Shown: positions 6,213-59,247 of the stretch, piece after piece
Layout: each line of letters begins with the position of its first letter
Position numbering within the stretch: the first letter of the stretch is position 1
Origin: Psammoneis japonica
Lineage: Eukaryota
Direction of reading: 5' to 3'
Assembly: GCA_008632985.1 (NCBI GenBank)
Contig: QPGO01000138.1
Coordinates: 124,001 to 188,000, forward strand
Length of the DNA: 64,000 nt
Translations under genes and position numbers: made by a program
The notes under the pieces: model-generated
Told to the model about the DNA's origin: nothing
What the model saw: only the letters and a program-made list of their open reading frames with translations
Databases searched by the model: none

Positions 6213-6232
6213 CCCCCCCCCCCCCCCCCCCC
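6213..6232. repeat. Poly-C tract (20 nt)
   Basis: Direct reading. Confidence 0.95.
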
Positions 6233-26600: not shown

Positions 26601-27620
26601 GAAATTCATGGTGGCCAATGCTCCAAAGGCTGTTGTTGTTCCACAAAGGAGTTTCTGGAGCTTGGAGAGCTGCAGCTGTTTTGTTGTGGTGCTCTCAGAA
26701 ATTGAGAGAGTGTCGATGATGTGGGGGCATCACATCAATGTGTTGAAGCCATTGTGGCTGCAATGAAAGAAAATGGGCCAAATGTCACCTGCAAGAAGAC
26801 ATGGCCATTTTTCTTGAAAGGGCATTTTCACAACCCAACGACATGGCCTCCAACAAGCCACTGGCTTTGGCCAATCCTGTGATTGCTGCTGTGAAAAAGC
26901 ACAATGACAACAAATCACTTGTTGAGTGTGGTGTTTGGCTCCTCATCAAACTTGCAGCTTCTAACAATGAAACAAAGGAGGAGATCATGGAACAGGGTGA
27001 CAGTGATGCAGCTGTGGCAGCTGAATGCAAGCAGAGTGCAAGCAGCACAATGAAACAATGAGAACATCCATCAGAAGGCTCTTGCCTTGTTGGAATGCCT
27101 CTGTCCTTCAGAAATGTCTGTTTGTCAGATCTCCATTTCAACAAAGTGTGTGTTTTTGAATGAACACAGATGGTTTCCTCTGTTGCAACACCACCTTGCC
27201 CATTGCATGCTGCAGCTTTTGCATGCTTCTCTCCAGCACAATGCAAAACACATGGTGGCATTTCTCAGAATTAAAGCCTTGCAGGAGACTCAGTGCCATT
27301 CATTGTGCTTGGTTCCATTGTTGCAAGGCCGACAGTTTCATTGTGCGGACATTGCACTTCATCCATCTCCTGTGGTCAAAGCCAAGGATTGAATGATGCC
27401 CTGCAACAACCTTCCCTGCAGTCTTCTTTGCCAGCAAGTGGGAAAATGCATGCCCAGCAGAAACAAGCTCTGTTCTGTTCCATTGACTGGTGTCTGTGGC
27501 TGCCCAAGGTCTGCACCAGTCCTCATGGCCAGCAGAAAACGCACCACCGGCAGTGCTGCAGCTGACGGCAGCTTGTCTGATCCGTTCCTCCTCGGCCATT
27601 TGTTGCTTTGCCAGGACGGC
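23690..27620. other. TpA/CpG-depleted hypermutated domain 2
   Basis: TA and CG nearly absent, TG/CA-rich, only fragmentary Cys/His/Gln-rich ORFs. Confidence 0.88.
26801..27061 (+). pseudogene. Relic of an ARM/HEAT-repeat protein
   Basis: VIAAVKKHNDNKSLVECGVWLLIKLAASNNETKEEIMEQG resembles one armadillo-type repeat. Confidence 0.4.
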
Positions 27621-30324: not shown

Positions 30325-31849
30325 CCTGCTGATTCCCGTTAATGATGATGATGATGATGATCGCCTTCTTTCATCAACGTTGCTCTTCTTGTGAGAAGAG
30401 TGAGAGTGCAAAGAAGAGCAACGCATCAACATCAATCTGTCAATCCAGATGCACAACCAAAGATCTAATACATAATCTTCTTCAATTTCGAATACATAAG
30501 CATCATTGCATGCAGCATTGGTCGTTTCTTTTTTGGCGAATCGGCAGCTGGCGGTGTTGACGTGGCATCAGGTCGCTCAAAGATACTGTGTAATAAAAAC
30601 ATCAGAGCAGAAGAATGCTACCGTACGGTATGCATCGCATCGTCGGTTTTTTTTTGGCAACCTGCAACAACCTGGAAAAAAATCGCTGGCCCCACTGGCA
30701 TTTGAGGGTGCAAGCAAGAAGAATCATCGCAGTGGCAGTCTGTCTGTACGATGGTTTCTACGCATATTTTGTACTTTCGTCCGTCCCTACCACCTCCAGC
30801 CCGATTCCGACCAACCCGATTCGGGCAGATGGCAGGTCGGACGATAGTACAAATTATGCATAGAATCCATCGTACAGACAGACCGCGCTGCGATTCTTTC
30901 TATGTATCTACTTTCTATCTCCTGCCTTGCTCGCATTGCAAGTGGCGACACGCGACACCCAACTTGCTGGCGGGCGCGTTCCGACGGTCTGACTGCATGT
31001 CCAGTGATGGGTTGCTCGTCGCACAGCCCTCTTTTTACGGCATCATGTGTCCAGTCACGCAGCTCAGGGTTGAAAAGAAGAAGAGGAAAAGGGTGAGGAG
31101 GAGAAGGAGGGAAAGGAGGAGAGGAGAGGGGCTGTGGGCACAATTTGGGGGCCCCCGCTTTCCCCCACAAATTTTTGCACTTGCCTTGTTGAAGTTGGCT
31201 GTCAATGAGCCGAACTTGAAAGTGCCAGCAACAGTGTCCAACAAAATGCACTTGTTTTGTGTGTTTCTTCTGATCATGTCTCACCAGCTTTTCTGACACA
31301 AGCTTCACTCAAACACGTGCAATGTTCAACTTGAGACAATTTTGGGGGGTGTTGGCGCCTTTTTTTTGTTGCACAGTTTGTTTTCTTCCTTTTGATGGTG
31401 GTCAGCTGAGCTTGGTTTCAACTTCATTCTCCCCACTCATGTGTGTGTGTCCTTGCATGTGTGCAGTCCACCTCATGTGCACACACTCTCCCACCCTCAT
31501 TTCAAATTTTTCCTTGTGCTTTCCCCCAGACTTGCGCAGCCCATTCTTGGTGTCCGCAGTGTTCTCAGCTTTTTTTTGCATGCACAATTTTCTGCACACT
31601 TCATAAAAGTGCCCTCTCCCCAAACATTAAAAAGCAAAGGTTTGCACTGTTGTGACTCCTGTGTGCTCCACATGTTGTTGCAAATTTGCAAATTGACAAC
31701 CTGCCAGGGCAGAGAAAGACTTTGCCCCATTGGCCGATGACAGCAGCTCAGTGCATGGTGAGAGCTGCTGTCCTTCTGGTTGGTCAAGATGGGTTGTGAT
31801 TGGGACATCTCTTCAATTTTGTGGTTGCAAGTGTGCTGTCATAAATCTG

Positions 31850-32760
31850 TCAAAGAGTTGCCCAGAATCCAGAATGCTGAGCTGGGGTGTCATGGCGAGT
31901 CGCCTCCTCTTTGCAGACTTTTCTGCAGCATTGGCAGCACAATGGAGCATGATGTCCGAGTTTTGCATCCAGAGTCATTGCAAGTTGCCACAAATTTCAT
32001 TCTTCAAACAAGGTGTGTGCAAAAAGAGGTTCATCATTTTTTGATGCATTCAGCAACAACGCACCCATCTTCTCCAATTTTTAAGCTCAGATCCAGAAAG
32101 ACTGCAGAGGCAGAGAGTGGCAGGGAGGCAACCCAGTGGAGGTTGCCTGAGTTGTCAAGCTCATTTCCAAAGGCTTCCCAAGTCTCTCTGCTGTTTCTGG
32201 TCCACACTCCAAATGTGTCATTGATGGGCTGTCTGCAGCACAAGAGGTGTGGGGCAAACTTGTCTGCATAACTTGTCATTCGTGCAGCGCCTTGTGCAGT
32301 GTGGAGCACATGCAGGCAGTGCTTGTTCCCATGGCCATTCCAGCAAGTGCATTCTGTGGCACTTGGGGTGGTGTTTTTGCTTCCTCATGTGCTGTCTTGA
32401 GTGTTTCCATGTTGCCCTGGAATCAGCGGTGCTGGCTGCAACAGCAAGCCCATGTTGCCACTCCCATCAGTTGTGTTGGTTCATCCACGCTGCACTCTCA
32501 CAATGTGCTCTGCACTTTTTGGCAATGAACAAGGTGGGTCAGAGCAGCGGCACTTCAAGAGCTGCAGCTGCCGCCACAAACTTGTGGGTGCCAGAGTTGG
32601 CAGCAGTGATGGCGGATCCAACAGCAAGTCCATGTTGCCATTTCCATTGGTTGTGTTGGCTCATCTGCATTGTGCTCTCACAATGTGTTCTGCACCTTTT
32701 AGCAATGAATGACTTGAGTTCTGTGTCCACCCACTTGTGTGCTGGATCATTCTTGTCTGG
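31850..32760 (-). mobile_element. Degenerate Penelope-like retroelement RT fragment
   Basis: GMAMGTSTACMCSTLH, CCRQPINDTFGVW (degenerate YxRYIDDxFGxW), GNLHW, AVFLDLSLKI, KMMNLFLHTP, EICGNLQ*LWMQNS; internal ~90-bp duplication (32440/32620). Confidence 0.7.
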
Positions 32761-32989
32761 GGTGACTCGATGGTTGTCTTGCCCCAAAGACAATTGGATC
32801 TTGGAGGTTTTTTGTTTTCAATTGATGGCGAGCAGCACCAAGTCTTTGAACTTGCCCATTTCTTTTTTGGTTTCATTCTAAATCTTGTGCTCCACCACTC
32901 TCTGCATTGTCGGTGGTGTTGTGTTGTGCAGCACAACAGCTCTTGAGTTGCTCACTTGTTGTGCCAGCAGTGTTCTGCATTTTTCCTCT

Positions 32990-35352
32990 GACAAGTGCGC
33001 CAATGAAAAGCAAGGTGAGAGAAAATCCAACAATGGACAAAAAACTCATTCTTGCCAATTTTTTGCTCTGTTGTTCAAACTCAGCTCCCACAGCTGCACA
33101 TTTCTGCCTCAGCTTGTTCTCAACAGATTGAAGGCCAGCTGTCTCAGTCAAAGACATTGAGGCACCATGCACTCTTGTTTGCACTTGCAAAATGAAGGTT
33201 GTTGTGGCAATGTCTGGGTTTCAGCATTTGGCTTTTGCAGCAAAAGCCAGCAAGGACAATGACTTTCTGTGCAGCCTCTTGTTGTGTCATCAAGTGCATT
33301 CTTTCTGCAAGTGAAGAAAGCAGAGTGGGCATGAGTGTGTTGTGGGTTGAATTGTGAATTGGGGCTCTGCTGCTTGCATTTGTTTCTTGCTTGCTGCAGG
33401 CAGCACTCCTTGCATTTTCAGCATGGTCTTGATGACTGAATGTTCTTGTCATGAAAGTGTTGCACATCTGAGACTGGCACCAAAGTCCAAGGATTTCTGA
33501 CTGCACAGTCCCAGAAAAACTCACCTGTCAGCTGGGCTGTTCTCTTGCCTGCTGGCAGCAACACTCTGACCAATCATTCACTGAGCCCTGCAACTGACTG
33601 GTGTGCTGTGCCCATGTCACAAGATGTCAAACAGTGTCCCACTTGTGGTGGCATGTGTCACAATGGAAGAGCTGTGACTTGCCACACCACATGATCCATC
33701 TGGGTGCAAGGTCTGGCTGCACCTGATTTGTTGCTCACACCAGAAAACCATGAAAATGCTGCTCCATCAGTGCAGGAATCCCAGGTGTGGGTGGGGCATT
33801 TGACAATCTCCTCAACAGCTCTGCCACATCATTGCTTTGGATGCGCAACACAAGCCAGATGTTTTCAAGAAAAGCAAGAAAACTGGGAGGTTTGCTCTCA
33901 ATGCCAAGATCTCACTTTGTCTCTCACCTTCAATTTGTGTGCCAAGTCATCCACAATGGTGCTGCAGGAAAAGCTGTGAATGTGGGAGGTTGTTGGCAGA
34001 CTGCTCAAGCTCTGTTCTGGTGCAGCAGCCTCTGCACCAATCTGGGTGCTGAGAGTTTCAGGATCTGATGTCCTCAAATGAGCAAATGATGTCAAAAAAG
34101 GACACAAGCCATGCAAAGAGGTTCATCCCAGAAGGAGGACAAATCCAAGAGCTTGCAGTTGCAGACATCCATGCTGGCTGAATGATGGGCAAAATGCTGC
34201 ACAAATGAGTGGGGCAACTGCACAGAGACAACCCACCAAGGCCACAGAGCACAGTGTGCTTGCTGGGACATCTTCTGCTGGAAGCAGTTTTGAGCCACAC
34301 CTTGTCTGGTTCCATGCCCCCCAGTGCCACCAGCGGCATCTGCACATCCAAGAGAGGAGGTGAGGAGCCTGGGGCAAAATGACCAGCATCTGCCTTTCAT
34401 TTTGTAGAGTGCAAAGCCTTGGCTCACAGCTGCAATGTTGCAGTTGCAGAGCAGAAAGAGAGGGTTACAAAGACCAGACTCATGCTGCACACATGAGCTG
34501 GACACACAAAAAAGGCTTGCAAGGTGCACAAGTGACACAAGGGCAACTCCAAAACTCAACTTTGCAAATTGCAGATTGCACGAACAGCAGCATTCATCCA
34601 GCTGCACAGGCAGCTCTTGCAAATCATGGAGGATGAGTGCTGAAACTTGTGCAGAATCTCCCATGATGACACAGCTCCATCAACTCTGTGAGATGATGAG
34701 TGGAGAGGCAAGTGGTCCAGAAGCCTGGTGCACACTGTTCAGTGGCACAAGGGATGGAATCTTCTTTGTTTTCTTTCATTCAACAAGCCAACAAGAGAGG
34801 AAACACCTCACAGTGGTGCTCGCCAGGAGAAGACAAAAAGGGGTGCTTGTTGATGTTGTTGGGAGCATCATTGGGTGCTGCGCTGCCAAACCTTGTGCAC
34901 TGTGAGCAGCCCACCAAGAAGTCTGGCATGCTCAGCTTCCACAAGAGAATGGCCCTCTGGCAGAGCGGCAGCAAAGGCTCCTTGTAGAAATTGAGCTTGT
35001 CTCCAAGTTGCACTGGGTCACGCACCCACTCAAGTCCTCTTTCCAGCTGCAAAAAGGGTGCACTTGATGGCACACAAGGTCAAAACTTTGCTGTCACAGG
35101 CTTCTGCTGCACAAGTCAAAAATGCCAAAACCTGAGCATTGCAACAGTTTTTGCTGCATCGGCACAAGCAAGAGTGCAGGGTTTCTCAATGTCCTTGATG
35201 GAGACAGCAGCTGGCCTTCAATCTGTTGAGAATGAGCTGAAGCTGAGACATGCACTTGCAAGAACTCAGCCTGAGCAGCAGAAAAATCACAGGAAGGAAG
35301 TTCTCATCTGTTTTTGGATTTTTTCTCATCTCTCTTTTCACGGGCGCACTTG
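32990..35352. repeat. Diverged inverted repeat pair (~32990-33190 minus; ~35162-35352 plus)
   Basis: Translations QTRVHGASMSLTETAGLQSVENKLRQ and QARVQGFSMSLMETAAGLQSVENELKLRH on opposite strands. Confidence 0.7.
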
Positions 35353-36566
35353 TCTGCAGCAAGGAATGCATTGGCGTGATTTTGGTGGGAACATGTTTGA
35401 TGGCAAAATTGAACATCAGCTGTTGCTGCCATCACCATCAATTTTGTGTCACTTGGTCAGGGGGTGGGCCTGCGGTGGTGTGTGCAACTTGTGTGGGAAT
35501 TTGCAATGCTGCAAAAGTCTGCCATTGGTCAGCATGTGTGGGGCTTGCTTTTGGTGAATGCTGGAGGGCAGACATGTCTTTTTCACATGTGACAACTGCA
35601 CTTGCCAAAGACCCAAACACACTGGAGGACAGCATTTCTTTGGACAGTCCAGCTTGTGTCCACAGTTGCCTCCAAAATCAAATGTGATGCCACCACCCCT
35701 GTGCTGGGCAGCAGAGAGGGCCAAAAGCCAAATGGCTGATGCCAGGAGGGACTCAAAGCACAACCAGAGATTTGGAATTTGCAGGTCCCAGCCCTGGGGG
35801 ACTTGGCTCATGCCCTGAGTTGCCAGCACTGAGCAGCTCCTTCTGCCATTTTAGATGGTTGAGCAGCAAGGAAAGAAGGCAAAAAAGTTGCACAGCCCAG
35901 GTGGTGCTGGCTCACTGATTGTTCAGACCATGAGCCTCTTGACTCAGGGTTTCCAAAATTGGCAAAAAACTGTTCTCACCCAAGCCCCTCATCTTCTCCA
36001 AAGCTTGGTGTTGAACACTCTGCAGTTTGCTGTTGACTCTGGCTCATTTGGCATTTCCTGTTTTGTGGCACTTTCTCATTGACCCCCAGACGCAGAGCAG
36101 GTGCTGCACCAGCAGATGTTTTTGAGTTGGCCTGGCACTCTCAAAGAGTGGCTTCCTCAAAGAGGAGCCAGCTGGCACACTCCATTTGCAGAAGAACACT
36201 TGTGCCTGTTGGAGATCTGTCTTTTGTGGTGGGAGAACCCCAGGCATCAATTTTCATGGAGTGGAGGTGGTTGCAACATCAGGCTGCCCCCCACCCCGGG
36301 CACTGGAAATGTCCAAGAGCTGAGCAGTGCCAGAGGCTCAAAGCAAGTCTGGAGATTTGGGATTTGCAAATCTGAGCCCCAGGGAACTTGGCAGACATTT
36401 GGAGTCCCTGGCACTGTGCACCATGCAAACAAGCTCTGTTGCAACAAACACAGGACCAATGTGATGTTCAGCAAGGGAGCAAACATTGCAAAATCTCAAA
36501 ACACCACTCAAAAAAGCCATCCAAGTCACCCCAAGATGGCGGTTGGTGCCAGGATGCAATTTCTGT

Positions 36567-36792
36567 GAACTCAATCAATCAACCCAAAAATGACAAATGG
36601 GTGATCTGCTTCACTTTTGATTTTGACCACAGCTGCACATGTGGCATGTCCATCTGGTTTACATTCTGACAGACTGGAACTCAGTCAATCAACCCAAAAA
36701 TGACAAATGGATGATCTGCTTCACTTTTGATTTTGACCACAGCTGCACATGTGACACATCCATCTGGTTTACATTCTGACAGACTGGAACTC
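36567..36792. repeat. 110-bp tandem duplication
   Basis: Two near-identical units aactca-tcaatcaacccaaaaatgacaaatgg...acagactggaactc. Confidence 0.92.
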
Positions 36793-37918
36793 TGTCCAGT
36801 CCAACAAATGTGGCAATTCATGTTGCATCTGAGCTGTGCTTTTTTTCCTGAATCTCATTTGAGCTGGAGATTCAAATGCGTGTGCATCTCTTTTTTGTTG
36901 TTGATTTTTTTCAGGCTCGCAGATTTCCAGAAATGAGGCGCCACTCTCTGGTTGCACTCATTGGCTGCATCTTTCCATGATTTCCTTTTGTGGGGCAACA
37001 GCAAAATGATGTTCTCTGTCACCACTCCCAACTGATGGCATCATTCTTGGACCTCTCAGATTCATTGTGGTGGTCAAGACATGCTTTGTCCTTGGGGATG
37101 ACTTTTTTTTACACTCAACACAGGTGATTGACAAGCAACAGAAATGCTGAATGCTTTTTCTGGTGGTTTGCCTTTGAAGAGTGCCAGTGTGTGCTGGCAT
37201 CTAGTTTGAGATGCATGGCAGAGTTAGATTTTGATTAAAATGACACAAACAAGGGCAAACTCAGGCAGAACAAATCTGCTGCCTCACTGGTTGCCTTCTC
37301 AAAGATGCCAGGAAACTGAAGCACAAACATCCTTCACCCCCACGTGATGGCATTTGCAATGACCTTGGTGATGACAGCAGCCTCTTGTTGCTTGCACCAG
37401 TGGCAGGTGCTTTTTGAGAATCCACCAGGCCAAAAATGTCCTGGTCTTCTTTGCTGTGCAATGCAAGCAACTCTTCTGTGCTGTGAGTGGGTGATGTCTT
37501 GTGGCTGGAAGGGGCAGGAGGAGCAGGTGGGAGAGTGGCTCACAGCTCTGGGCTCATGGTTGCTTGTGTGTTTTCTTGACAATGTGACAAATCATGTTGG
37601 AGGGAGCCACAGTCAAAGTCCTGCCAGAGCAGGTGGGGGATTGCACGGGTTGTGGGCACTCATCACTTGCCAGGCACCCTGCAAAGAAGCAAAGCGCCCA
37701 GCCAGCAGGGCATGGTTTTCATGGGGTGCCTTCTGCCTGGCATTGCTTTTTTTGCCTGTGGACACAAATGCATGTTTTGTTGTCCTGGCACCTCAGCCAA
37801 AACAATTGCCATGTCTTCATCATCTCCTTGGGGGAAACTCACCCCCATTCTTTCTGAGATGAAGTGAGATCCATCGATTTGGATGCAGCAGATGAGCTTG
37901 GCTGAGCTTGAGTGTTGG

Positions 37919-38112
37919 TGACAGAATGCCGAAGGTCAACAGTGACAGAGGTGTGAAAGACTCCCCAAAGCACCAGGACTGTGACAACACGAGTGCCAGC
38001 AGATGAGAAAGTGAGAAGCAGATCTCAGAGAGATCTGCTCATCTGTCCAAATGGTCCAGCCATCATCCGCATCCAGTCTGTCCATCCTGCGACAGGTGTA
38101 GACAGGCTGACA
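37919..38112 (-). repeat. LTR A (194 bp), preceded on the minus strand by PPT GATCAGGGGAGGG (38113-38125)
   Basis: Aligns with 38263-38456 and 48304-48497. Confidence 0.9.
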
Positions 38113-38262
38113 CCCTCCCCTGATCTGTGACATCTCAACATAGAGAACAGTGCAGATCAAACCAAAGAACAGGGATGATGTGAGGAAAAAAAACAGAGAG
38201 ACTGGACATGGGACACAATGAGTGTCCATGCCCAATGCGCCATCAAACAAGGGCTCACAACC

Positions 38263-38456
38263 TGACAGAATGCTGAAGGTCGACAGTGACAGAGGCATGA
38301 AAGACTCCCCAAAGCACCAGGACTGTGACAACACGAGCACCAGCAGATGAGAAAGCGAGAAGCAGATCTCAGAGAGATCTGCTCATCTGTCTAAATGGTC
38401 CAGCCATCATCCGCATCCAGTCTGTCCATCCTGCGATGGGTGCAGACAGGCTGACA
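38263..38456 (-). repeat. LTR B (194 bp) with PBS-like GGTTGTGAGCCC (38251-38262) and PPT (38457-38469)
   Basis: Direct repeat of LTR A. Confidence 0.9.
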
Positions 38457-38761
38457 CCCTCCCCTGATCTGCAATGTCTCAACACAGCGAATGGTGCAGA
38501 TCAAACCAAAGAATGGGGATGATGTGAGGAAAAAAAACAGAGAGACTGGACACAGGACACAACAAGTGTCCATGCCCAATGCGCCATCAAACAAGGGGGG
38601 CAATGCGCAGCAGGGAGGCCAAGCTTTCTGTTTCGATTCATTTGTTTTGTGAGCCGATCAAGCGAGCCTCATCGTCTGATCCGACAACTTTTTGTCTCGC
38701 TTTCCCGGCATTTTTCACGACCGTAGAAACATGCCAGATTTCTGCGCGTGCATGACCAAAA

Positions 38762-40813
38762 ATGGCTCCACCCACTAAAACCATGGCGTCTCCCGACCTT
38801 ACAAAAGCCGCTCCCACGTCAACTGCAGAGATCCACTGCGAATTTGAGGCACATGCAACAATGCCACATCTACATCAGTGTCTGAGTGCGGTTTGTGCGG
38901 ACTCCATAACTGATCTTGATCGATTTTTTGACGATCCAGAGCACACGCAACCCAAGAATGATTTTGCGGACATGCTCCGCGATTGTTTCATCCACGAAGC
39001 GTTTCCACCTTACACAGCTGATCCCACGGATATAGAATCAATCAAGACGATTATGGATCAAGCCCCGTTCAGACTTCTTGACCCTCAAAGGCCTCGTCCA
39101 GTCCACCTGACGACTCCGATCTCATCAAAGATGATCAAGACGAATCTTCAGAATGGTGAACAATCTCTGTTCATTGCCACATCTACCCAACACATGCATG
39201 TTCATCCGGACATGCCACGGAACTATCGCAATTGGAGCGAGTTCTCTCTTATGCCCCACCAGAAGAAACAGCAGCCTCCGTCTTCTTCTCAGAAACCTGC
39301 AGGACCTGCTACATTGACTGTGGCTGACTTAGTCACTGCACTCAATGCACACGCGTCGAGCCATGCTCCGCCTTCTACAGCTTCTGCTGAGACATCTGGA
39401 AGTGCTGCATCCTCCATGACATCGAAGTGCCTCTTCAATCCAAACACACTTCCTCCAGATGTTCACGCACGCTGTGACCGCAAAGAAGATGGAAAAGTCA
39501 CTCTTCAGAGCTCTCTCGTCCCTTACGACCATGGATTCCGTCACTGTGTTGATGCATCCGATCGCATCATCCTCAACGATGGCACCCTTTTCATCATGAG
39601 CTCGACTCCTGATCAGAAAATGCTGTTCAGGGAACCTCCTGCATGTCATGACGACTCCCCCCCTGGGATGCGAGCATGGTGCCAAAATTTCCAACGTCAT
39701 GCCTTTGATTCAGGTTGCCACACACATCCATTGTGGTGTTTTGCCAAGGACCACGGTGGTGAGAAAGGTTTCGAGATTGGAAACGGCAAAGATGACGACT
39801 TGCCCCAGCGTGTGTACATCCACTGCAAGGAAGCCCAGAGCTCTCTCCACAAGATCCTGTCCAAGTCGGACATGTTCCCCAAGAACAGCAAGCATCATCC
39901 GATTGTTGCATCATGCTGCGGTGACGGATGCAAGGCTCTCAAGCAGATCATCTACGAGAATCACCCTGCTTTTGACCATGATGCTGCAGGACTAGTTGAT
40001 TCCCATCCTGCCCAAGGCAATCGATCTTTGACGGACTGCCACATGATTTTCAATGATTTCCTGCAGCTGCGTGCATGCATCTTTGATGCGGACTCTACGT
40101 TGAGTGATCCACGGGAGATGACTGTCTTTGTCAAGAACAGCAAGTGCACCAAGTTCTCATCTCGTGCTGCCAGAGATGAACGGAAGTCTCCAGCTGTGCA
40201 GAAGAAGTGCACCGATGCACAGATTGTCGAGACTCTCTCTGATTTCCTCCGCCAACCAGATGGTCCATCCATTGACACCCGTGCAACACCAAGCATTTCC
40301 TGCCGTAAATGGAATCGTGCCAATTGGGAAACACGATGCACGACTGTTGATGTCAATGCTCTCCAGGTCCCCGAGATCCCTCCACTTGAACCAGTCGATG
40401 ACTCTGCTGTTGAAGATGCTGGTGCGGAATCTCTCTCTTCGGATGCCTTCGACACTCTTTGCGACGAGTTGCATGGACTTGAGTTCCCCTCCACGGATGA
40501 AGATCGACTCCTTCACCATGTCCACTCGGCTTCAGTTTATGGGCTGAAAGTTGCTCCGACTGAAGCTTCCAAGAAACCGTGTCTCGTCTGCTCCGGTGAA
40601 CACTTGTTTGACGACTGTCAAGTCTTGAAGAACAATCCGTACATCAAGGGATTCCATGTCCGCTTTTGCCAATTCTTGAAGAGGGAGGCAGCCATGCGTG
40701 CTTCTGAGTTCCAAGGACCCCAAGGCCTGCTCCCCCCTCATCATGAAAACCCTGAAAATTCGACTAAATCTGGTGCTCCGCCTTCGGATTTTCAATCGGG
40801 CCATCGCAGCTAG
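38762..40813 (+). mobile_element. Copia gag ORF, copy 1 (683 aa, open but mutated)
   Basis: Zn knuckle CLVCSGEHLFDDC; homologous to 46076-48125. Confidence 0.85.
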
Positions 40814-42890
40814 TTTCGGATCTCCGACGCTGCCCGTTTTCTCCTCACCGAGATGTGACGAATGTCAGCGGGATGACCTTGAAAGAGGGACTAACCGTCT
40901 CGTCATCTGCCGCTGAAGTGCCTCTTTCTCCGCAGATTGACATGGATGCCACCCCTGCCACTGCCAAGAAGGCATCATTCGACACCAGTGAATTGCCAGA
41001 CGATGACCCTGCTCCTCAAGAAGACACCGTCGATGCTGCTCCCACTCCGGATCCTTTGGAACAGGGGAGGGAAGCCTCAGAAACACCGGATTTCGAGGAA
41101 TGCATTGATCTCACCTACGATGACATGGCCATTGAAGATGGTTTTGCTGCAGTCAATTCTGTTCAAGTTGCTCCGATTGATCCATGCCAAGCGACTCACT
41201 CTCCTGCACCAGAACCAATGTGCTCTACTTGCTCTGTCCATGGGGTCAATTTTGCTCCGAATGAACGTTGCGCTCAACTCGACACAGGTGCTGACATTGC
41301 GTGCACAGGTGACCGTGACCTCCTCCATCGATGCCAAGAATTCACTCCGTCTCATCCCTGTCCCCTTGCTGTCAATCCCACCCTTGGCCATCACGCTGTC
41401 CCAGTTGGTTTCGGATGCCTGCGGATTCCTGCAGAGAACTCTGCCGGATGTGTTGAGGTTCGCACATGCTGTCACCCGCAGATCCAATCTATGTTGGTCG
41501 ATGAGCGACTGCTGCTCCATCAAAATGGTGCTCGTCGCGCAGATTGCAATGTCAATTGTGTTCTCAAGTTCCATGATCTCGGCACCTGCAAGTTTGTTGC
41601 ACGACACCGATTGCGCAAGAGTTAGGATGTCATTGTTCATGGGAAATTGATCAATGGAAAATGTTTCACTCACCCTCTCATTCTCCCGGAATCTAACGAC
41701 GAACTGGATGCATCTGTCAAGCGCCTCAAGACTGGTGATCCTTCTTTTGCCAATGAGTGTGAAGCGGTCTCTGCGCACATGATTGAGACTTGTCGTACCC
41801 ACCAACATGAAGCTCTTTGTCATGAACGCAAGTTGATCCCCCGTGTCTGTCAAGACATTCCTTTCGAGAAGCATGCTGAGAAGAATGTTCCTGTCCAGTC
41901 TCTCAAGGCCGACACGGAACGTCTTTTGTGGCATCAGCGACTTGGTCATCCGAGTGATCACTGCCTTTGTGGTGCCCACAAACACGTTGACGGCGTCCCC
42001 AAGTTTGCTCACGGAACCTCTCCCCTCGACACTTGTCCTGCATGTGTACAAGCAAAGCAGACGAAGGAACCTGCCAGTCCGAACACTGCTCTCACTGCCA
42101 CCCAACCCCGCCAAGGCCTTGCGATTGATTTTTCCTTCTCTGGCCTGCCCTCCAAGAACTCGGAGCGCACCAAGGACTGTGTTGGATTGAGTGGCGAGAC
42201 TTGTTGGATTGCTGTTTACGATCATAAAACAAAGCGTCTCCATGGTGCGACTCGTGTCTCCAGAGGAAACCCCTTTGACTTGGCTTCGCCACTTTCTGGA
42301 AGAGCACTCGCCAAAATGTCCAGACAAACATGCATTCATGGATCAAGGAGGTGAATTGCATCAAAACCCAGAAGTTCAACGACTCTTTGAGGATGACTTT
42401 CATCATGCAATTCGTCCTGCGGGAAAAGATGCTTCAAATCAGAATGGCCCAGTGGAACGCAGTCATTTGTCTGTTGCCAACGCCATCCGGGCGATGCTCA
42501 TCGGTGCCGATTTGCCCACAAAATTCTGGCCCTGTGCTTTTCATCATTTCATTCGAATCAACAACACTGTGCCATCCCGCGGACAACCTGCTGCTCCGAT
42601 TGCTCTCGCCACTGGTTGGAAGGATGATTTCAAGAACTTTCGCATGTTTGGTTGTCGAGTGTGGGTGCGTGCATCGAATCACCACCCCGCAAAATTTCGG
42701 TCCGTCTCTTGCAAGGGAATGTTCTCAGGCCATCTTCTGGACACCACCAAGAACATCCCATGGTGTGATCCTGAGACATCGCGTGTCAAGCTTGCCAAAC
42801 ACATCCACTGTGATGAGGGCATGAATGATCTTCCCCACGACGCTCTTCCGCCGAATGCAGTTCACTTGGAACGTGCTCAAGATGGCAACA
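40786..42890 (+). mobile_element. Copia pol 5' half (protease, GAG-pre-integrase, integrase), degenerate and truncated
   Basis: AQLDTGAD protease; LWHQRLGHP..CPACVQAK; IDFSF, DQGGEL, QNGPVERSH, FWPCAF, FGCRVWV. Confidence 0.88.
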
Positions 42891-42925
42891 CCTCTGTCAC
42901 TGTCGACCTTCGGCATTCTGTCAGT

Positions 42926-43066
42926 GCCAGGACTGTGACAACACGAGCACCAGCAGATGAGAAAGTGAGAAGCAGATCTCAGAGAGATCTGCTTGTCCAT
43001 CTAAATGGTCTGGCCATCATCCACATCCAGTCTGTCCATCCTGCAACAGGTGCAGATGGGCTGACA
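42926..43066 (-). repeat. Partial LTR C abutting an inverted LTR end (~42888-42922)
   Basis: Matches LTR A/B/D; PPT at 43067-43079. Confidence 0.85.
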
Positions 43067-43246
43067 CCCTCCCCTGATCTGCAATGTCTCAACATAGAGA
43101 ACAGTGCAGATCAAACCAAAGAACAGGGATGATGTGAGGAAAAAAGACAGAGAGACCAGACACAGGACACAACAAGTGTCCATGCCCAATGCGCCATCAA
43201 ACAAGGGGGCAACACGCAGCAGGGAGGCCACCGCGGAAAAAAAATG

Positions 43247-45895
43247 TCAACAGCAGTGTCCCATCATGCGTCGAGCATGGCGGGCGTGTGACACCCAGCC
43301 AAGAGCCTTGGCAAGGTCATCGCTGGGGTTGACAATGCCAGGGACATGTCTTGTGACAATCTTGCCCGCTTCCTTCCATTCTTGAATCGCAAAAAACTGG
43401 ATCTCAATGTGACGGGAGTGCTCGGTCGGAATCGAGTGATTGATGATCTTGATCGCCGATTCGTTGTCAACATGTGACGGGGTTGGCTCCGTCTGAGGGA
43501 AGCCTGGGTCGTGCAAAACGTGATGAAGGTGCAGGACATGCTTGGCAGCAGTTCCAGCAGCACAGAATTCAGCTTCTGTAGATCTCGCAGCGGTCACCGA
43601 TTGGGTCTTGCACCGAAAAGACACAGCAGCACCAGCCAACATGCAAGCACAGCCAGTCGTAGAACGACGGTTGCGGAGGTCATTGCCACAAGCAGCATCC
43701 AAGAAAGCAACGAGTTGATGATCACATGCAGGTCAAGGGAACGATGGTGAGGTCGGGTCCGGAGTGAGACGTTCGAAGGGGCAGGCAGGTAGTTTTGAGT
43801 CTCGGGTGGGCTTTTTGTGGTTCAATTCCCAATGCTCAGTGCGTCGAAGGTGCTTGCATGTTCCTTTGAGCGCGTCACAGTGAACCACAGCAGGACAGGT
43901 CGAGAACTTGGAGAGAGCAGTGATGGCATGCCCAATGTCCAGTCGACAGACAACGTGCGCATGCAACAACTCGCCAAGAAGAGTGCGGCAGCCGAAACCA
44001 GCAGCTTGTTGTGGCTCCGCATGCTCCGGGGTTCCTTCAGCTGGGCCAATGGCAGTGTGCAGTTCACGAACAGAGTCAACAGGGAGTGGTGTAGCCTTGC
44101 AGTCGTCGTCGAGTTCCTCGTCCGTCGGTGTCGACCAACCATGTGAGGCACAAACCCGATCTACACAGCTGTGAACAGCAATGCCAATGGAGTCGTCACA
44201 CTGATGAACATCTGCACCATTGAATTCGTCAATCATGCCAAGATGCTTGAATGGCGGAGAGGTTTCCAAATCCAATTGGAGAGCTTTGCCAATCCTGTCG
44301 TAGATCTTGATTGCAACAGACTCTTCAGGACAAGCGAGAGAGAAATCATCAACCTGATGGAGGAGCAAGATCTTTTGTCCTTCAAAAGCAGCAGAGCAGA
44401 CACATTTGTCATGAGTGGTGTTGCGAAAAAGCAGGTTCACATCAGACAAAACACCATTGATGTGTGTCTCCCAGAGCACACCGGCTTCTGGGTGTCCTTG
44501 GAGTGCATGTTGCATCGGAAGTGCCATGCTCCTGTCCAAGTCAATGCCAAATCGAGCCTTGCACCAGGTCGCGCATGCCTCGTCTGTGGCAACACACACG
44601 GGATGTGACGGTCGTGGAGAGTGTGCACAGGCATCACGAGCATCCCCACCAAAGACAGGACAGCTCATGGTCGCAGCAAGGGCAAAAAACATGCGTTGGA
44701 CAGGTTGCTCGACACAGGATGAGTGCATCAAGTAGAGACGATGTAGGATCGACGCAGCACGGGGAGATCCATTGCAGCACTGTCGAGAGTGCCGTGTGCC
44801 ATCATGCTTGAGGTCACATTGCCAATGCGGACAAAGTACGATGGCATCCTTGGGTCGTTTAATCGGTGCACCAAACATCCCCAACTCATGGAACTGGTCA
44901 AGTTGTTTGAATTCACCTGCATGCCATTCGGGCCACGTGTCCAACTTCTTGAGACGATGGCGGGTGAAAGTGCCCAAGGCTTGTTCCTCTGGAGCAATGG
45001 CATGAGATGATGTGGCACAGATGTTGACCACACCATTGTCACAATCGACAAAGAACGGCGGAAGGACATCGTCATCATTCGTTTTGGAGAAATCAATGTT
45101 GGGGTGGCGGACAGCAGCAACAGCATGCATGTCGGCGTTGGTGATTTCCGGAACATGCTCATCATCAGGATCAGGAGTCGGTGCACATGTGTTGTGTTCC
45201 ATCAGAGCACGTTGTAGAGCTTGAGAGTCCAGGCGACGTTCCGGCGCGAATTCAACGTCAAAATGAGTCTTGCCAGAATCACAGACTTGCTGAAAACATT
45301 TGACAGCCTCCTCTGCCGTGAAGACAGGGTGATCATCGATCGATGCGACATGCGCACCCTTGATCTTGTTGCGGGTGGCCTTCAAAGAAGAGAAAAGACG
45401 CGCAGCAGGAGAACCACGTTTGATGTCAGAGACAAATGCTCACCGACAGAGATCGTCTGTAGCCAAGGAAAGTCCAAACGTGGGATCAGCAAATGGTCCC
45501 TTCATCGTGCGCTTGATGGTCTTGGCAAAAGGATTCCCATGAAAGTGAAACTCATCCATCGTGGTTTCTTCAGTCTCGGCAGGTAAAGCCTTGCCATCTT
45601 GAGCACGTTCCAAGTGAACTGCATTCGGTGGAAGAACGTTGTGGGGAAGATCATTCATGCCCTCATCATGGCAGATGTGTTTGGCAAGCTTGACACGCGA
45701 TGTCTCAGGATCACACCATAGAATGTTCTTGGCAGTGTCCGGAAGACAGCCCAAGAACATTCCCTTGCGAGAGACAGACCAAAATTTGCGGGGCGGTGAT
45801 TCGACGCACGCACCCACACTCAACAACCAAATGTACGAAAGTTCTTGAAATCATCCTTCCGACCAGCAGCGAGAGCAATCGGGGCAGCAGGTTGT
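43247..45895 (-). mobile_element. Copia pol 3' half (integrase tail, RT, RNase H), degenerate
   Basis: ALQGHPEAG, HQVDDF, CRLDIGHAITALSKF, DAACGND..RRSTTG, STEAEF, DNESAI, HIEIQFFAIQEW, NPSDDLAK. Confidence 0.92.
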
Positions 45896-46075
45896 CCGTG
45901 GCAGTGTCGAATGATGCCTTCTTGGCAGTGGCAGGGGTGGTGTCCACATCAATCTGCGGAGAAAGAGGCATTTCAGCGGCAGATGACGAGACGGTTAGTC
46001 CCTCTTTCAAGGTCATCCCGCTGACATTCGTCATGTCTCGGTGAGGGGAAAACGGGCAGCGTCGGAGATCCGAAA

Positions 46076-48125
46076 CTAGCTGTGACGGCCCGATTGAAAA
46101 TCCGAAGGCGGAGCACCAGATTTAGTCGAATTTTCAGGGTTTTCATGATGGGGGGGAGCAGGCCTTGGGGTCCTTGGAACTCAGAAGCATGCACAGCTGC
46201 CTCCCTCTTCAAGAATTGGCAAAAGCGGACATGGAATCCCTTGATGTGCAGATTGTTCTCAAGACTGGACAGTCGTCAAATGAGTGTTCACCGGAGCAGA
46301 CGAGACACGGTTTCTTGGAAGCTTCAGTCAGAGTGACTTTCAGCTCACAAACTGAAGCCGAGTGGACATGGTGAAGGAGTCGATCTTCGTCCGTGGAGGG
46401 GAACTCAAGTCCATGTAACTCGTCGCAAAGAGTGTCGAAGGCATCCGAAGAGAGAGATTCTGCACCAGCATCTTCAACAGCAGAGTCATCGACTGGTTCA
46501 AGTGGAGGGATCTCGGGGACCTGGAGAGCATTGACATCAACAGTCGTGCGTCGTGTTTCCTCATTGGCACGATTCCATTTACGGCAGGGATTGGATGGTG
46601 TCGTACGGGTGTCAATGGATGGACCATCTGGTTGGCGGAGGAAATCAGAGAGAGTCTCGACAATCTGTGCATCGGCGCACTTCTTCTGCACAGCTGGAGA
46701 CTTCCGTTCATCTCTGGTGGCACGAGATAAGAACTTGGAGTGCTCAGTGTTCTTGACAAAGATGGTCATCTCCCGTGGATCACTCAACGTAGAGTCCACA
46801 TCAAAGATGCATGCACGCAGCTGCAGGAAATCATTGAAAATCATGTGGTGGTCCGTCAAAGATCGATTGCCTTGGGCAGGATGGGAATCAACTAGTCCTG
46901 CAGCATCATGGTCAAAAGCAGGGTGATTCTCGCAGACAATCTGCTTGAGAGCCTTGCACCCGTTGCCGCAGCATGATGCAACAATCCGATGACACTTGCT
47001 GTTCTTGGGGAACATGTCTGACTTGGATGGGATCTTGTGGAGAGAGCTCTGGGCTTCCTTGCAGTGGACGTACATGCGCTGGGGTAAGTCATCATCTTTG
47101 CCATTTCCAATCTTGAAACCTTTCTCACCACCGTGGTCCTTGGCAAAACACCACAATGGAAACATGCAGCAACCTGAATCAAAGGCATGACGTTGGAAAT
47201 TTTGGCACCATGCTTGCATCCCAGGGGGAGAGTCGTCATGACACACAGGAGGTTCCCTGAACAGCATTTTCTGATCAGGAGTCGAGCTCATGATGAAAAG
47301 GGTGCCATTGTCAAGGATGATGCGATCGGGTGCATCAACACAGTGATGGAATCCATGGTCGCAAGGGACGAGAGAGCTCTGAAGAGTGACTTTTCCATCT
47401 TCTTTGCAGTCGTAGCGTGCACGAACATCTGGAGGAAGTGTGTTCGGATTGAAGAGGTATTTCGATGTCACGGAGGATGCAGCACTTCCAGACGTCTCAG
47501 CAGAAGCTGCAGAAGGCGGAGCATGGCTCTACGCGCATGCATTGAGTGCAGTGACTGAGTCAGTCACAGTCAATGTAGCAGGTCCTGTGGGTTTCTGAGA
47601 AGAAGACGGAGGCTGCTGTTTCTTCTGGCAGGGCACAAGACAGAACTCGTTCAAATTGCGATAGTTCCACAGCATGTCTGGATCAACATGCACATGTTGG
47701 GCAGATGTGGCAATGAACAGAGATTGTCCACCATTCTGAAGATTCGTCTTGATCATCTTTGATGAGATCGGAGTCGTCAGGCGGACTGGACGAGGCCTTT
47801 GAGGGTCAAGAAGTCTGAACAGGGCTTGATCCATAATCGTCTTGATTGATTCCATGTCCGTGGGATCAGCTGTGCAAGGTGGAAACGCTTCGTGGATGAA
47901 ACAATCGCGGAGCATGTCCGCAAAATCATTCTTGGGTTGCGTGTGCTCTGGATCGTCAAAAAATTGATCAAGATCAGTTGTGGAGTCCGCACAAACCGTG
48001 TTCAGACACTGATGTAGATGTGGTGTTGTTGTGTGTGCCTCAAATTCGCAGCAGATCTCTGCAATTGACGCAGGAGCGGCTTTTGCAAGGTCGGGAGACG
48101 CCATGGTTTTAGTGGGTGGAGCCAT
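46076..48125 (-). mobile_element. Copia gag, copy 2 (frameshifted); protease and integrase deleted at ~45895
   Basis: Translation nearly co-linear with 38762-40813. Confidence 0.88.
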
Positions 48126-48303
48126 TTTTGGTCATGCACGCGCAGAAATCTGGTGTGTTTCTACGGTCGTGAAAAATGCCAGGAAAGCGAGACAAAAAGT
48201 TGTCGGATCAGATGATGAGGCTCGCTCGATCGGCTCACAAAACAAATGAATCGAAACAGAGGGCTTGGCGCAGAGGTCTGTGGCACAGCGCATGGCTACA
48301 ACC

Positions 48304-48497
48304 TGACAGAATGCCGAAGGTCGACAGTGACAGAGGTGTGAAAGACTCCCTAAAGCACCAGGACTGTGATGACACGAGCACCAGTAGATGAGAAAGTGAG
48401 AAGCAGATCTCAGAGAGATCTGCTCGTCTGTCCAAATGGTCTGGCCATCGTCCACATCCAGTCTGTCCATCCTACGACAGGTGCAGACAGGCTGACA
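48304..48497 (-). repeat. LTR D (5' LTR, 194 bp) followed by PBS-like GGTTGTAGCC
   Basis: Aligns with LTR A/B; TSD adjacent. Confidence 0.9.
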
Positions 48498-49263
48498 GTT
48501 GGAGAGTGTTGCCTTGCAAATTGCAGACATGTTGCATTGGCACCTGGTCATTGACAAGGACACCCCTCTTCTGTTCATTGTGGGAAAAGGAAGCAACGGT
48601 GCAAGTGCCATTGAGGCTGCCAGGATTTTGCATTTTCAAGGCTTTTCTGTCAACGTGGTTTCTCTTGTTTTGCCAACTGACAAAAACTTGAGACCCAACA
48701 TGTCAGAGCAATTGGAGCTCTGCAAGCAATTTGTTGGATGTGACATTTTTCATCCTCTTGACTGGGAAATTGTCAAGCTGCACAACAAAGGTGTCACTGT
48801 GCTTCACCGTGGTGAAAACCGTAAGCCATGAGTTTGCAATGAAGGTGTGCCGGCAGACTCACTTCAAAATTGTGTTCCTCAGCTGTCAAATGATTGATAT
48901 GATGCATTCGTCTGGTGCCGGAAGACTGCGTTTTTGAGAAAGATCGATGATTGGCGTCATCGTCGTGCTTCGATCGCCGATCGCGGTGTTTGATCAGTGG
49001 TGCATTGGTTTCATGTTATTATTTTCGTGCGCGATCGGGTGCGAATAAGAATAATTTTTGTATTCAAAAATACACACTTATAAATAGCTTTATTGAAATG
49101 TCATTGTAATTTTAGGATAAACCCGGGACTGACTACCCTAAAGTCTGCCATCAAAATTGGCCCAGAACTCTCCACGGTCCGCAGTGTGGGAGTAGCCAAT
49201 GGCGATAAGGCTACCAGGTTGTCACCGTTCGTACTTTTAACAAAGCTCGGCCGACGCTGATTA

Positions 49264-56333: not shown

Positions 56334-56816
56334 ATAGACAGATTATCTAGCTAGACAGCCACCGGTAGACAGGCAGACAGACAGCTGCGGTAGATAGATG
56401 GGCGGGGCCATGCATGCGTGCCGCGCATAGACGCAACCTGTTTCGCGCTGCGCGGCTGAATTGCTGTGACACCTCCACAGCCAGAATTTTTTTACCACGA
56501 CATAACCACGGCCGCTAGCGACATCCTCTTTTTGATGTTACCACTGTTCAACAAGAAGCTTGCTCTCGCCGACACCACTTGCGCTCTTGACAATAGAAAC
56601 TAAGAGATTTTTATCGGGTAAGTCACACCCTTTATCGTGCGCTTTCCACGGGCTCAGGAAGTATCGGCACTAACCCATTTTTTTCTCTTCAGCTCTTATT
56701 ACGGCTCGACCCATCCCAACCTACCCGAAGACGTGTATCTCCATTACCGTCAACAGGAGCCCGTCACCACTGGCGCCTCTATCAGTTCTGGGCTTGCTAT
56801 ACCTGCTGTAGTGACC

Positions 56817-57558
56817 ATGACCATCGACAACCTATATCTTGATATTGTGCACCGGCCCGAGTTTGACATGATTGACGACAAACCCAAGAACAATTTGTCG
56901 CAACTTAGAGGAGAAACGGTTGCAATTGACGTGTCCATTCCTCTTTACAAGATCCTCCTCGACCCAATAGCGGCAAGGCAAGTGTATGCCTCACCGAAGA
57001 CACCTGTTGGTCAAGCAGCAAAACTTTTGGTACAGCGTCACAACAGACTTTACAAACAAAACGGCATTGAAGCCATACACGTTTTTGACGGCGCTCACAA
57101 CCCGCTCAAATGGCAAACTGATGCAAAGCGTAGAGCCAGAAAAAGACCTGTTGAAGATAGGATATTGTTTCTTCTTCAGCAGAACCGGCCAGAACAAGAT
57201 AGACTCGAGGTGCTGAACAGGTGGAAAAGCATTGTTTGTCCAAGAGGTGACATTATGCTCCTGATCAAGAAAGTATTCGACTGAGAAGGAATCCCGTATA
57301 TGCAAGCTGCCATTGAAGCTGAAGCGCAGTGCGTGGAGATGCAAAATTTGGGGATTGTCACATATATAGAATCTGAGGATGGCGACGTGTATGGGTACAA
57401 TGGTGAGAAATGGATCACCAACTTAAACCCCCACAATGGTGACTGCTGTATGGGTGGCGGCTGATATTGATGCTCGTGAGAGTGCTGGAGGTGGCCGTTG
57501 GAAGGATTTCAAGTATGCCATTCCTGCTTTTCGTGGTTGTGACTACAATACTGGGTAG
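56817..57558 (+). pseudogene. XPG/FEN1/EXO1-family nuclease, interrupted and truncated
   Basis: LRGETVAIDVS, HVFDGAHNPLK, in-frame TGA at 57282-57284, then GIPYMQAAIEAEAQC, ESEDGD, GCDY. Confidence 0.75.
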
Positions 57559-57835
57559 GTAGTGTTCGATAGCTACCGGTGGCATTTGATGTGATAGCCA
57601 ATAGCCAGCATTCGATACTGTACGACAGGGTAGCTAGCATTCGATACTGTACGATAGGGTAGCTAGCATTCGAAAGCTAGAGTACTAGCATTTGGCACGA
57701 TGTGACAGATAGTAGTATTTGATGGCTACTGGTAGGAGTAGTATTTGATCTGATACGATGGATAGCATTCGATGCGATGCGGCAGCTAGAGTGTTTGACA
57801 GCTAATGTTCGATACGATACGATAGCTAGAGTTCC
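57555..57835. repeat. TA/CG-rich degenerate minisatellite (29-bp core tagctagcattcgatactgtacgataggg)
   Basis: About 2.5 near-perfect units at 57602-57672, with decayed units on both sides. Confidence 0.8.
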
Positions 57836-57939
57836 CCAATGGCTTCCTGGATTACTTCTTAGATTTTACAACAGAAGCTGAGGGGATAAATGTGTCCTCT
57901 GACCAAAGCTATTAAAGGCAATGATAAAAACGGAAGTTA

Positions 57940-58460
57940 TCCTTTATAGTTACATGCACGACCACAACAAAGAAGCTCAGCAAAACGACTTTTTGACGAT
58001 GACGACAATGCCCGCCATGAAATGCAACACTCAGTCGCTCTTCTATATACAATAAACAAATGACACCAGCGATGAAATTCAATGGATGAAGCCAAATCAA
58101 CGAAGTGTAAACGACACAGCCAAAACGGCATGCGATCAAAAACCACAACACTGTATAAAACGACTTTACACAACGACGACAACACCCGCCATAACAACAA
58201 AAGACTCGGTTGCTCTTCTCAATGCAACAAACAAATGATGCGAGCCGTGAAAGCCAATGGATGAAGCCAAATCAACAAAGTGCCGGTATAAACAACACGG
58301 CCAATGGCATTTGATCAAAAACCACAACACTGCACACATAAAACGACTTTGTGCGACGATGACAATGCTTGCCACAGCAACAAAACATTCAAGCATGCTT
58401 TTCTTGATACAACAAACAAACATGATAGCCACCTTGCCAAGCCAAATCAATGAAGTAACA
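57940..58460. repeat. Three diverged ~175-182-bp tandem units
   Basis: aaacgacttt at ~57983, 58158, 58341; aagccaaatcaa at ~58089, 58264, 58439. Confidence 0.8.
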
Positions 58461-59247
58461 TCAAAATAGCCAACAACGGACGCAAAAAAAATTGAATCCA
58501 ATGTATTCAAAATTGCATGTGGGTCCCGGTGGCACACAAGAGTTCTCAACAAGGTGCCCACACACCACATCTCTCATGTTGTTGTTGCTTGCATTGCCAC
58601 TTCCATAACATGGCCTTCTTTTGCTGGCACACGGCAGATGCAAGGGTGGAGCCGCACACCTTTGCAATGGTTCCTCTGGGGATCTCGCTTGCATTTTGGG
58701 AGACGATGCCGTGGGCGATTCTTCTGTCATCACTGCAACAGGTAGAGGAAGGAGAGGTCAATCAAAAGCGCCAGTGGTGACGGGCTCCTTTTGACGGTAA
58801 TTGAGATACACATCTTCGAGTAGGGTGTGATGGGTCGAGCCGCAATGGGAGCTGAAGAGGAAAAAATGGGTTGGTGCCGATGATTCCTGAGCCCGTGGAA
58901 AGCGCACGATAAAGGATATGACTTACCAAAAATAAAGCTCTTAGCATCTGTTGTTAAGAGCGCAAGTGGTGTCGGGGAGAGTAACCTTCTTGTTGAACAG
59001 CGGTGATATCAAAAGAGGAGGTCGTCAGAGGCCGTGGTTTTGTCGTGGTAAAAAAATTCTGGCTCCGGAGGGTCACAGCAATTCAGCGTCCGGGTTCCGT
59101 CTATGCCGCATGCCAGTAGACAATGGTATAAAGCTCGCCACCCTATTTCGCATCAACCACCGACACAACATCACGATGGCACGATCACCCCGTTTGTGTG
59201 AAAGTCCTTTTCTTGAACAAATCTACCTGGCAGGGCACTGCGACAAG

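Follow-up and report, generated by a model that had tools for sequence, protein, structure and literature searches.

Hypermutation of chromosomal A:T pairs to G:C has been reported, in the literature searched, for a single organism, a rhizarian alga, in a preprint of 2026 in which Mettrop et al. describe TpA>TpG/CpA changes in nucleocytoplasmic large DNA virus (NCLDV) and virophage DNA integrated in Bigelowiella natans (bioRxiv 10.64898/2026.01.13.699255). In the accessible part of that preprint, mutation-accumulation lines show about 6e-7 changes per site per generation and modest long-term depletion, a single-copy region can be affected, and ADAT2 is proposed as the enzyme without a test. 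Here we analyse a stretch of 64,000 nucleotides from Psammoneis japonica ("the window"; assembly GCA_008632985.1, contig QPGO01000138.1, positions 124,001 to 188,000), in which intact eukaryotic genes (RPB9, GrpE, PP-loop, fasciclin) are interspersed with blocks nearly without TpA, and in particular the Copia polymerase (pol) sequence at 41647..45385 of the window. There is very little doubt that the change in these elements occurred after insertion, on both strands, specifically at TpA and most strongly at RTAY (R, purine; Y, pyrimidine), with one change per site and independently of reverse transcriptase (RT), running in one young family from the 5' long terminal repeat (LTR) and gag downstream.

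By analogy, the signature appears to work like the B. natans system. Both consist of regional TpA>TpG/CpA changes on both strands of chromosomal DNA, in foreign or mobile sequence, and host genes are spared here, the observed/expected ratio (o/e) of TA being 0.44-0.58 in three host-gene blocks of the window vs 0.04-0.14 in depleted blocks. The targets differ, with viral inserts in a rhizarian on one side and near-saturated Copia, long interspersed nuclear element (LINE) and inverted-repeat sequences on the other, and the part of the preprint at hand does not describe the RTAY preference, the 5' LTR polarity or the co-located CG decay seen here. APOBEC3 and ADAR likewise cause context-specific, deaminase-type hypermutation of retroelements. 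Their substrates are cDNA or RNA, and each copy then bears one class of change, whereas here the classes interleave, the LTRs of one element differ, UAG is disfavoured and an element without RT is hit. Decay of 5-methylcytosine in CpG also produces symmetric transitions at a palindromic dinucleotide in silenced domains, and co-occurs with the signature here, but it acts on C, and TpA loss here is far faster than CG loss. Finally, repeat-induced point mutation (RIP), the work of RID/DIM-2 in ascomycetes, shares the dinucleotide-specific transitions after insertion, the inactivation of repeats and the effect on flanks, and diatom DNMT4 is described as related to RID (PMC9998398). However, RIP converts C:G to T:A and thereby creates TpA (PMC2621366), whereas the direction here is A:T to G:C, and RIP senses paired homology, whereas here the 3' LTR is spared in 6/6 hit copies. 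No report of TpA hypermutation in diatoms was found in the literature searched, whose coverage leaves out most subscription journals, and the B. natans preprint does not contain the word 'diatom'.

Tyrosine columns and TpA loss in Copia copies

A sequence-only reading of the window had proposed that positions normally Tyr in Copia pol appear as Cys or His in 41647..45385. Tyr columns, defined as at least 70% Tyr, were taken from an alignment with the best 33 of 116 intact relatives. The 32 such columns mapped in the window carry His 14, Cys 12, Arg 1, Phe 4 and Tyr 1, and the 29 that fall in 41647..45385 carry His 14, Cys 9, Arg 1, Phe 4 and Tyr 1 (binomial p=0.40). The count of TAY>TGY against TAY>CAY that had been suggested as a check thus comes to 9 Cys and 14 His in the interval, where TA o/e is 0.084 (18 TA in 3739 nt), and to 212:188 in 30 genomic copies.

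All ten motifs cited in support of the proposal are present in the window. FWPCAF (42524-42541) and GELHQN (42350-42367) lie on the plus strand; DACAHSP, GFGCRTLLG, TTGCAC, ELLHAHVVC, DIGHAI and PFKHLG (44635-43643) and the LINE motifs RLDC (1914) and HGTSQG (144) lie on the minus strand. Since the Copia motifs are found on both strands, the interval is not one gene but two Copia pieces in opposite orientation. It sits in a rearranged nest, in which a plus-strand piece (gag to integrase) abuts a minus-strand element. The Ty1/Copia features present are GAG-pre-integrase, integrase before RT, RVT_2 and LTRs, and the nearest named relatives of pol are diatom elements (Nitzschia, Cylindrotheca, Fragilaria), on which ground the host is taken to be a probable diatom. 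The ancestral Tyr assignments are borne out by the 33 relatives, in which the marked residue is mostly Tyr in all eight Copia motifs (FWPCAF 31, GELHQN 30, DACAHSP 22, GFGCRTLLG 26, TTGCAC 22, ELLHAHVVC 32 and 32, DIGHAI 32, PFKHLG 30) and nearly all the remainder is Phe. For TTGCAC this holds for one Cys; the second corresponds to Phe in 29/33 relatives. The LINE shows a similar change, as had been claimed: the RLDC column reads C9 H5 F5 Y1 among 20 genomic copies, and the HGTS column, covered by 17 of the 20, reads Y9 C4 L3 H1.

The same picture emerges from 30 of the 42 genomic RT matches, scored at 16 Tyr columns, which contain 212 Cys, 188 His, 29 Tyr, 29 Phe, 2 Arg and 4 other residues, with 16 missing. 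Fifteen of the 16 columns are mixed among copies, the sixteenth being Phe in this family. Residues whose codons lack TA or CG are retained at 87-99% (W.99, C.99, Q.99, K.97, H.96, E.96, D.90, F.88); for Tyr the fraction is.02. There is no strand bias per copy in this set (chi2 p=0.38) or in a second one (p=0.31), and no run structure in the 30 copies (190 vs 185+-9, P=0.32). In 13 close copies, 107 columns of TA type read TG 692, CA 555, TA 92 and CG 3 on the coding strand. The TG excess arises because YTAY sites favour TG (TG:CA of 353:179, vs 32:47 at RTAR); in self-complementary contexts, the ratio is 306:328 (p=0.40). The coding-strand TG:CA ratio therefore need not be 1.

Could the direction be the reverse, so that apparent TpA loss is in fact ordinary CpG decay or RIP of the fungal type? 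CG decay also yields TG and CA, and it is active here: old blocks have a CG o/e of 0.1-0.2, and among singletons CG>TG/CA is the commonest class. However, intact relatives have Tyr, only 2 of the 402 changed Tyr codons in the 30 copies became Arg (CGY), and in pairs polarised by comparing a TA-rich with a TA-poor copy it is TA that is lost, with almost no reverse change (81 vs 0 for copy L043 and 109 vs 1 for L101). These three observations refute the reversed reading, whose probability we consider negligible.

Strand symmetry had been taken as pointing to a DNA-level process. The conclusion stands, on the evidence of LTR pairs, a non-retro element and flanks given below, but symmetry does not establish it. 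As TpA is palindromic, A>G on both strands cannot be told from T>C on both strands. Nor is it correct that RNA editing can give only one class, since editing of RNA plus minus-strand cDNA would yield both, or that a ratio near 1 identifies a double-stranded target, since separate single-strand events on either strand sum to the same result.

Change in inserted DNA

The two LTRs of one element are identical when inserted. We therefore compared them in a young Copia family with 11 full-length copies. Six copies have fewer TA in the 5' than in the 3' LTR (6/14, 3/17, 8/15, 4/18, 7/14, 2/13), and none shows the reverse (p=0.03). The other five are level (14/14, 13/15, 14/15, 18/17, 19/19), two of them (L174, L175) with light internal hits. 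In one copy, on contig C388, the LTRs hold 13 vs 2 TA, and the 11 lost sites changed 6 one way and 5 the other inside a single LTR. Within positions 1-4100 of this copy, 10 TA are kept while 94 became TG, 59 CA, 1 CG and 2 AA; within positions 4101-6229, 91/99 are kept. The 4.1-kb hit zone has thus lost ~94% of its TA and kept ~91% of its CG, with 5 transversions. Over nine LTR pairs, there are 57 TA-type, 7 CG-type and 27 other differences. Four heavily hit young copies show a mild coding-strand excess in self-complementary contexts (63:41, p=0.04), although they are not independent, as L176 and the C388 copy share 42/49 states. The minus-strand element of the nest in the window (element 2 in Table 1) behaves similarly. 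Its LTR pair differs over 140 nt by 12 transitions and 0 transversions (sites TG/CA x3, TA/TG x1, TA/CA x2, CG/TG x1, CG/CA x2), and its gag differs from the inverted copy (45904-48269 vs 38618-40985) at 31 sites that are TG in one and CA in the other.

The loss is also polar. In the young family, it is heaviest in the 5' LTR together with the first 2 kb and declines over 2-4.4 kb, and the final 1.5 kb is nearly unhit in 11/11 copies. The 600-nt upstream flanks of the six hit copies contain 3, 1, 5, 16, 6 and 7 TA, vs 11, 13, 25, 29 and 27 upstream of the five level copies (p=0.017). On the downstream side, where one flank of 271 nt was dropped, TA does not differ between hit and level copies. 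One copy, L177, has an old, TA- and CG-poor downstream flank beside an unhit 3' LTR, which shows that simple spreading from neighbours is insufficient. The process probably nucleates at the promoter end, within a domain that is presumably methylated. Between the 5' LTR of element 2 and another repeat, a host-type YjeF_N fragment contains 0 TA and 2 CG in 296 nt where about 11 TA are expected, an expectation made without an unmutated reference sequence: no second DNA copy of the fragment was found in the genome, a homolog search with it returned none, and the intact paralogue (L117) is distant (28% identical).

Elements that lack RT are affected as well. The window contains a TA-rich element with terminal inverted repeats (56472-59071), and genomic copies of this type, L043 and L047, carry the signature. 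Of 100 TA in L043, 19 are kept, 39 became TG and 42 CA, while 86/89 CG are kept; another inverted-repeat copy has lost 32/48 TA (14 TG, 18 CA). The element in the window is 2.6 kb long, with 95 matches genome-wide and an XPG_N (FEN1-like) open reading frame (ORF) running into a stop; no transposase was seen in it. In a further copy, L041, hits cluster in one short patch. Its first five states are also those of L043, a hint that copies inherit such changes or exchange them by gene conversion.

Editing of RNA or cDNA, or an RT bias, during retrotransposition has some points in its favour: the targets that stand out most are retroelements, the genome has ADAR-fold genes and some changes are apparently inherited between copies. 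Yet TA differences between the two LTRs of a single copy run both ways, the inverted-repeat element is hit although it lacks RT, unique flanks are TA-poor and copies lack a strand bias. As the main source it is refuted by the LTR pairs, and we regard it as very improbable; the combination of RNA and minus-strand cDNA editing is excluded by the LTR and flank tests and by nothing else.

Sequence context, CG decay and candidate lesions

In the three polarised pairs, no TA is kept at RTAY (0/104), compared with 11/55 at YTAY, 21/83 at RTAR and 11/28 at YTAR, and in mixed contexts it is the A preceding a pyrimidine that changed (74:29). Accordingly, RTAY makes up 10/136 of the residual TA in depleted blocks of the window vs 294/952 in gene blocks. 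Private AT>GC changes in the hit zone of the young family number 20/1707 off TA vs 42/143 at TA, those off TA preferring a 3' C (13/20). In the C388 copy, non-TA A>G is raised about sixfold in the hit zone (28/1479 vs 3/922 outside).

CG decay follows the same boundary, since in the C388 copy it is limited to the hit zone (22/239 vs 0/99, p=5e-4). The older blocks of the window (about 1-8300, 24000-27400 and 31100-37900) have a CG o/e of 0.10-0.18 and the Copia nest one of 0.7. That the former are CG-poor and the latter retains CG shows that TA loss precedes CG loss. The affected domain is probably CG-methylated as well.

A signature of this kind is seen beyond P. japonica. Of 235 relatives examined, 229 cover at least 6 Tyr columns and 13 of these, none of them in a named genome, have at least 25% Cys/His there, in a survey whose mutated query favours Cys/His-rich relatives; a separate search for look-alikes in other genomes of the collection found none. 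A family on metagenome contigs, with 35 loci of which 34 match copies of this genome at 65-75%, ranges from intact (L146, Tyr 15/15) to saturated (L126, with Tyr 0, Cys 15, His 6 and TA o/e 0.02), and totals Tyr 187, Cys 160, His 119 and Arg 2, near-duplicates included. Neighbouring host genes of these loci pointed to no taxon. Seven of its copies of at least 84% identity, after 7 near-duplicates were dropped, have 82 TG, 104 CA and 237 TA kept, and RTAY is again hit most (99/160).

We lean, with modest confidence, towards a host process that mutates the chromosomal DNA of mobile elements, most plausibly a DNA adenine deaminase converting A to inosine (A>I). After insertion, TpA would become TpG or CpA on either strand, site by site. 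The sparing of the identical 3' LTR and the TA-poor unique flanks suggest that the target is not sequence homology but the chromatin or transcription state set up at the promoter end of the element. The lesion, the weakest step in this scheme, may be A>inosine, the enzyme being a deaminase of TadA/ADAT or ADAR fold with a preference for T-A-pyrimidine. Replication would fix inosine as G, and repeated rounds would saturate old copies, remove Tyr codons and inactivate the elements. Deamination is favoured because it is the simplest A:T>G:C route, the context is TadA-like and candidate genes are present. These are an ADAT2-like gene (L036), a TadA-like gene (L033) and two ADAT1/ADAR-fold genes, one Tad1 being the norm across eukaryotes according to the part of the source consulted (PMC3239186), which also describes a deaminase-SAM-Tudor clade in stramenopiles. 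The second ADAT1/ADAR-fold candidate (L184/L185, contig C79:344558-345390) has HAE, PCG and CSDK motifs; no dsRNA-binding domain was seen in the ORFs read there, and its Atlas search returned generic A_deamin clusters and nothing else. On the same contig, L035 (C79:87006-90176) encodes a CDA-fold deaminase fused to a DIOX_N/2OG-Fe(II) oxygenase. As far as the available excerpts go, an engineered TadA-derived editor prefers YAC (PMC13109818) and the ADAR hot spot is UAG (PMC10661471); the T-A-pyrimidine preference resembles, by analogy, the former more closely than the latter.

Three other kinds of lesion deserve consideration. Because TpA is palindromic, lesions of A and of T are indistinguishable in sequence, and enzymatic oxidation of T to 5-hydroxymethyluracil or 5-formyluracil (5hmU/5fU) at TpA in silenced elements would give T>C, as 5fU mispairs with G. 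In a dinoflagellate, 5hmU is described as replacing T preferentially in TA and TC and as marking transposable elements (PMC11572971, in the portion seen). Here, however, TpC is not visibly mutated and no TET/JBP match was found in the genome, a weak negative given that the control was silent too; we consider T oxidation unlikely. A two-step route, in which N6-methyladenine (6mA) at TpA in silenced elements is deaminated or misrepaired to G, would explain the restriction to domains and the co-location with CG decay. The C5 DNA methylase family has 27 matches in the genome, of which several keep long open frames and some contain stops; this would fit an expanded modification machinery. Yet 6mA in eukaryotes usually lies in ApT, which is affected far less than TpA, and MT-A70 was unmatched in a search whose control was also silent and which left other adenine methylase families outside its scope. 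We therefore hold this route to be quite unlikely.

The third possibility is passive, in that damage or copying slips to which TpA is prone, for instance through photoproducts or error-prone synthesis, are left unrepaired or misrepaired in silenced chromatin. It agrees with the site-by-site, non-processive pattern and with the rise in non-TA A>G in the hit zone. It sits poorly with the loss of nearly all TA beside the retention of most CG and the handful of transversions in 4.1 kb, with the polarity from the 5' LTR and the unhit 3' LTR of L177 beside a depleted flank, and with B. natans, where the preprint, as far as accessible, reports a local rate raised 1000-fold and switching on and off between lines (bioRxiv 10.64898/2026.01.13.699255). 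We judge it as doubtful as the 6mA route.

A search for strand-coordinated tracts in six data sets gave only one weak short-range signal (98/172 vs 83.8+-6.2 at up to 15 nt, P=0.02), which was not repeated (P=0.10, 0.62, 0.59 and 0.72 in other sets). This absence fits site-by-site action over a processive single-strand scanner.

Several points weigh against the deaminase reading. Strand-coordinated tracts, absent here, are what a processive single-strand deaminase is expected to leave. UAG, the hot spot of ADAR (PMC10661471, as far as seen), is disfavoured here. No enzyme is tied to the mutation, and the ADAT/TadA genes are widespread housekeeping genes; the sequences do not distinguish damage to A from damage to T, nor show a duplex substrate. 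At YTAY, the metagenome family went CA 45 : TG 27, the opposite lean, in 7 related copies. The 5' polarity comes from one family whose copies are not fully independent, the TA-poor upstream flanks could predate insertion, and the CG methylation of the domain is presumed.

Layout of the window and significance

The features of the window that bear on the signature are given in Table 1. Element 1 has a frameshift near 42270, is cut at 42888 and has a TA o/e of 0.14. Element 2 has lost its protease and most of its integrase by a deletion at ~45900, and its RT is at most 53% identical to intact pol.

Table 1. Positions of TA-depleted blocks, Copia pieces and neighbouring features in the window
Feature	Position	Strand	Basis or remark
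TA-depleted domain containing the finding, with sharp edges	31100..49000		TA counts
Further TA-depleted blocks	about 1-8700 (LINE); about 24000-27500		TA counts
Two tandem LTR + 3' UTR (untranslated region) pieces, family of element 2	37919..38621	-	
Copia element 1, internal piece: gag, protease, GAG-pre-integrase, integrase/SH3	38618..42888	+	PF13976, PF25597; gag and protease presumed from position and motifs
Element 2, 3' LTR, truncated	42927..43066	-	Polypurine tract immediately upstream, 43067-43075
Element 2, presumed RNase H region; Tyr 0/161 aa	43247..43732	-	Within tblastn match to intact pol; no Pfam hit
Element 2, RT; Tyr 2/568 aa	43733..45439	-	PF07727 E=8.6e-6, below curated cut-off
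Element 2, gag	45904..48269	-	Inverted copy of 38618-40985, 93.8% identical
Element 2, 5' LTR	48304..48497	-	12 transitions, 0 transversions vs 3' LTR
YjeF_N host-type gene fragment adjoining element 2 5' LTR	48499..48828	+	0 TA and 2 CG in 296 nt
TA-rich control element: ~340-nt terminal inverted repeats, XPG_N ORF	56472..59071	+	Some genomic copies with signature

The junctions at 42888-42927 and 45900 are those of an inversion/deletion that set two Copia pieces tail to tail, and a 37-nt LTR piece near them recurs exactly, inverted. At 30726-30894, a TA-rich 52-nt inverted repeat with a 48-nt spacer borders a TA-depleted block. A second contig set, possibly from the same source DNA, covers all 30 bins of the window with 8 listed letter differences, which argues against an assembly artefact, although it is not independent.

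With these findings, TpA hypermutation is known from a second lineage and, close to saturation, from ordinary transposons. The part-hit young copies supply what the B. natans study, in the part available, lacked: RTAY as the motif, polarity outward from the 5' LTR and a boundary. Speculatively, diatoms, and perhaps stramenopiles, alveolates and rhizarians (SAR) widely, may defend their genomes with a natural DNA adenine base editor. It would be drawn, independently of homology, to the promoter end of an element that has just been silenced and spread several kb both ways, changing RTAY-centred TpA on both strands until the element is inactive, with the C79 ADAT1/ADAR-fold gene or ADAT2 as the enzyme; we put this forward as a tentative proposal. 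If a deaminase is responsible, it would be a natural DNA adenine editor. In genomes with such a signature, the ages of transposable elements estimated from LTR divergence, as well as Tyr-free ORFs, mislead.

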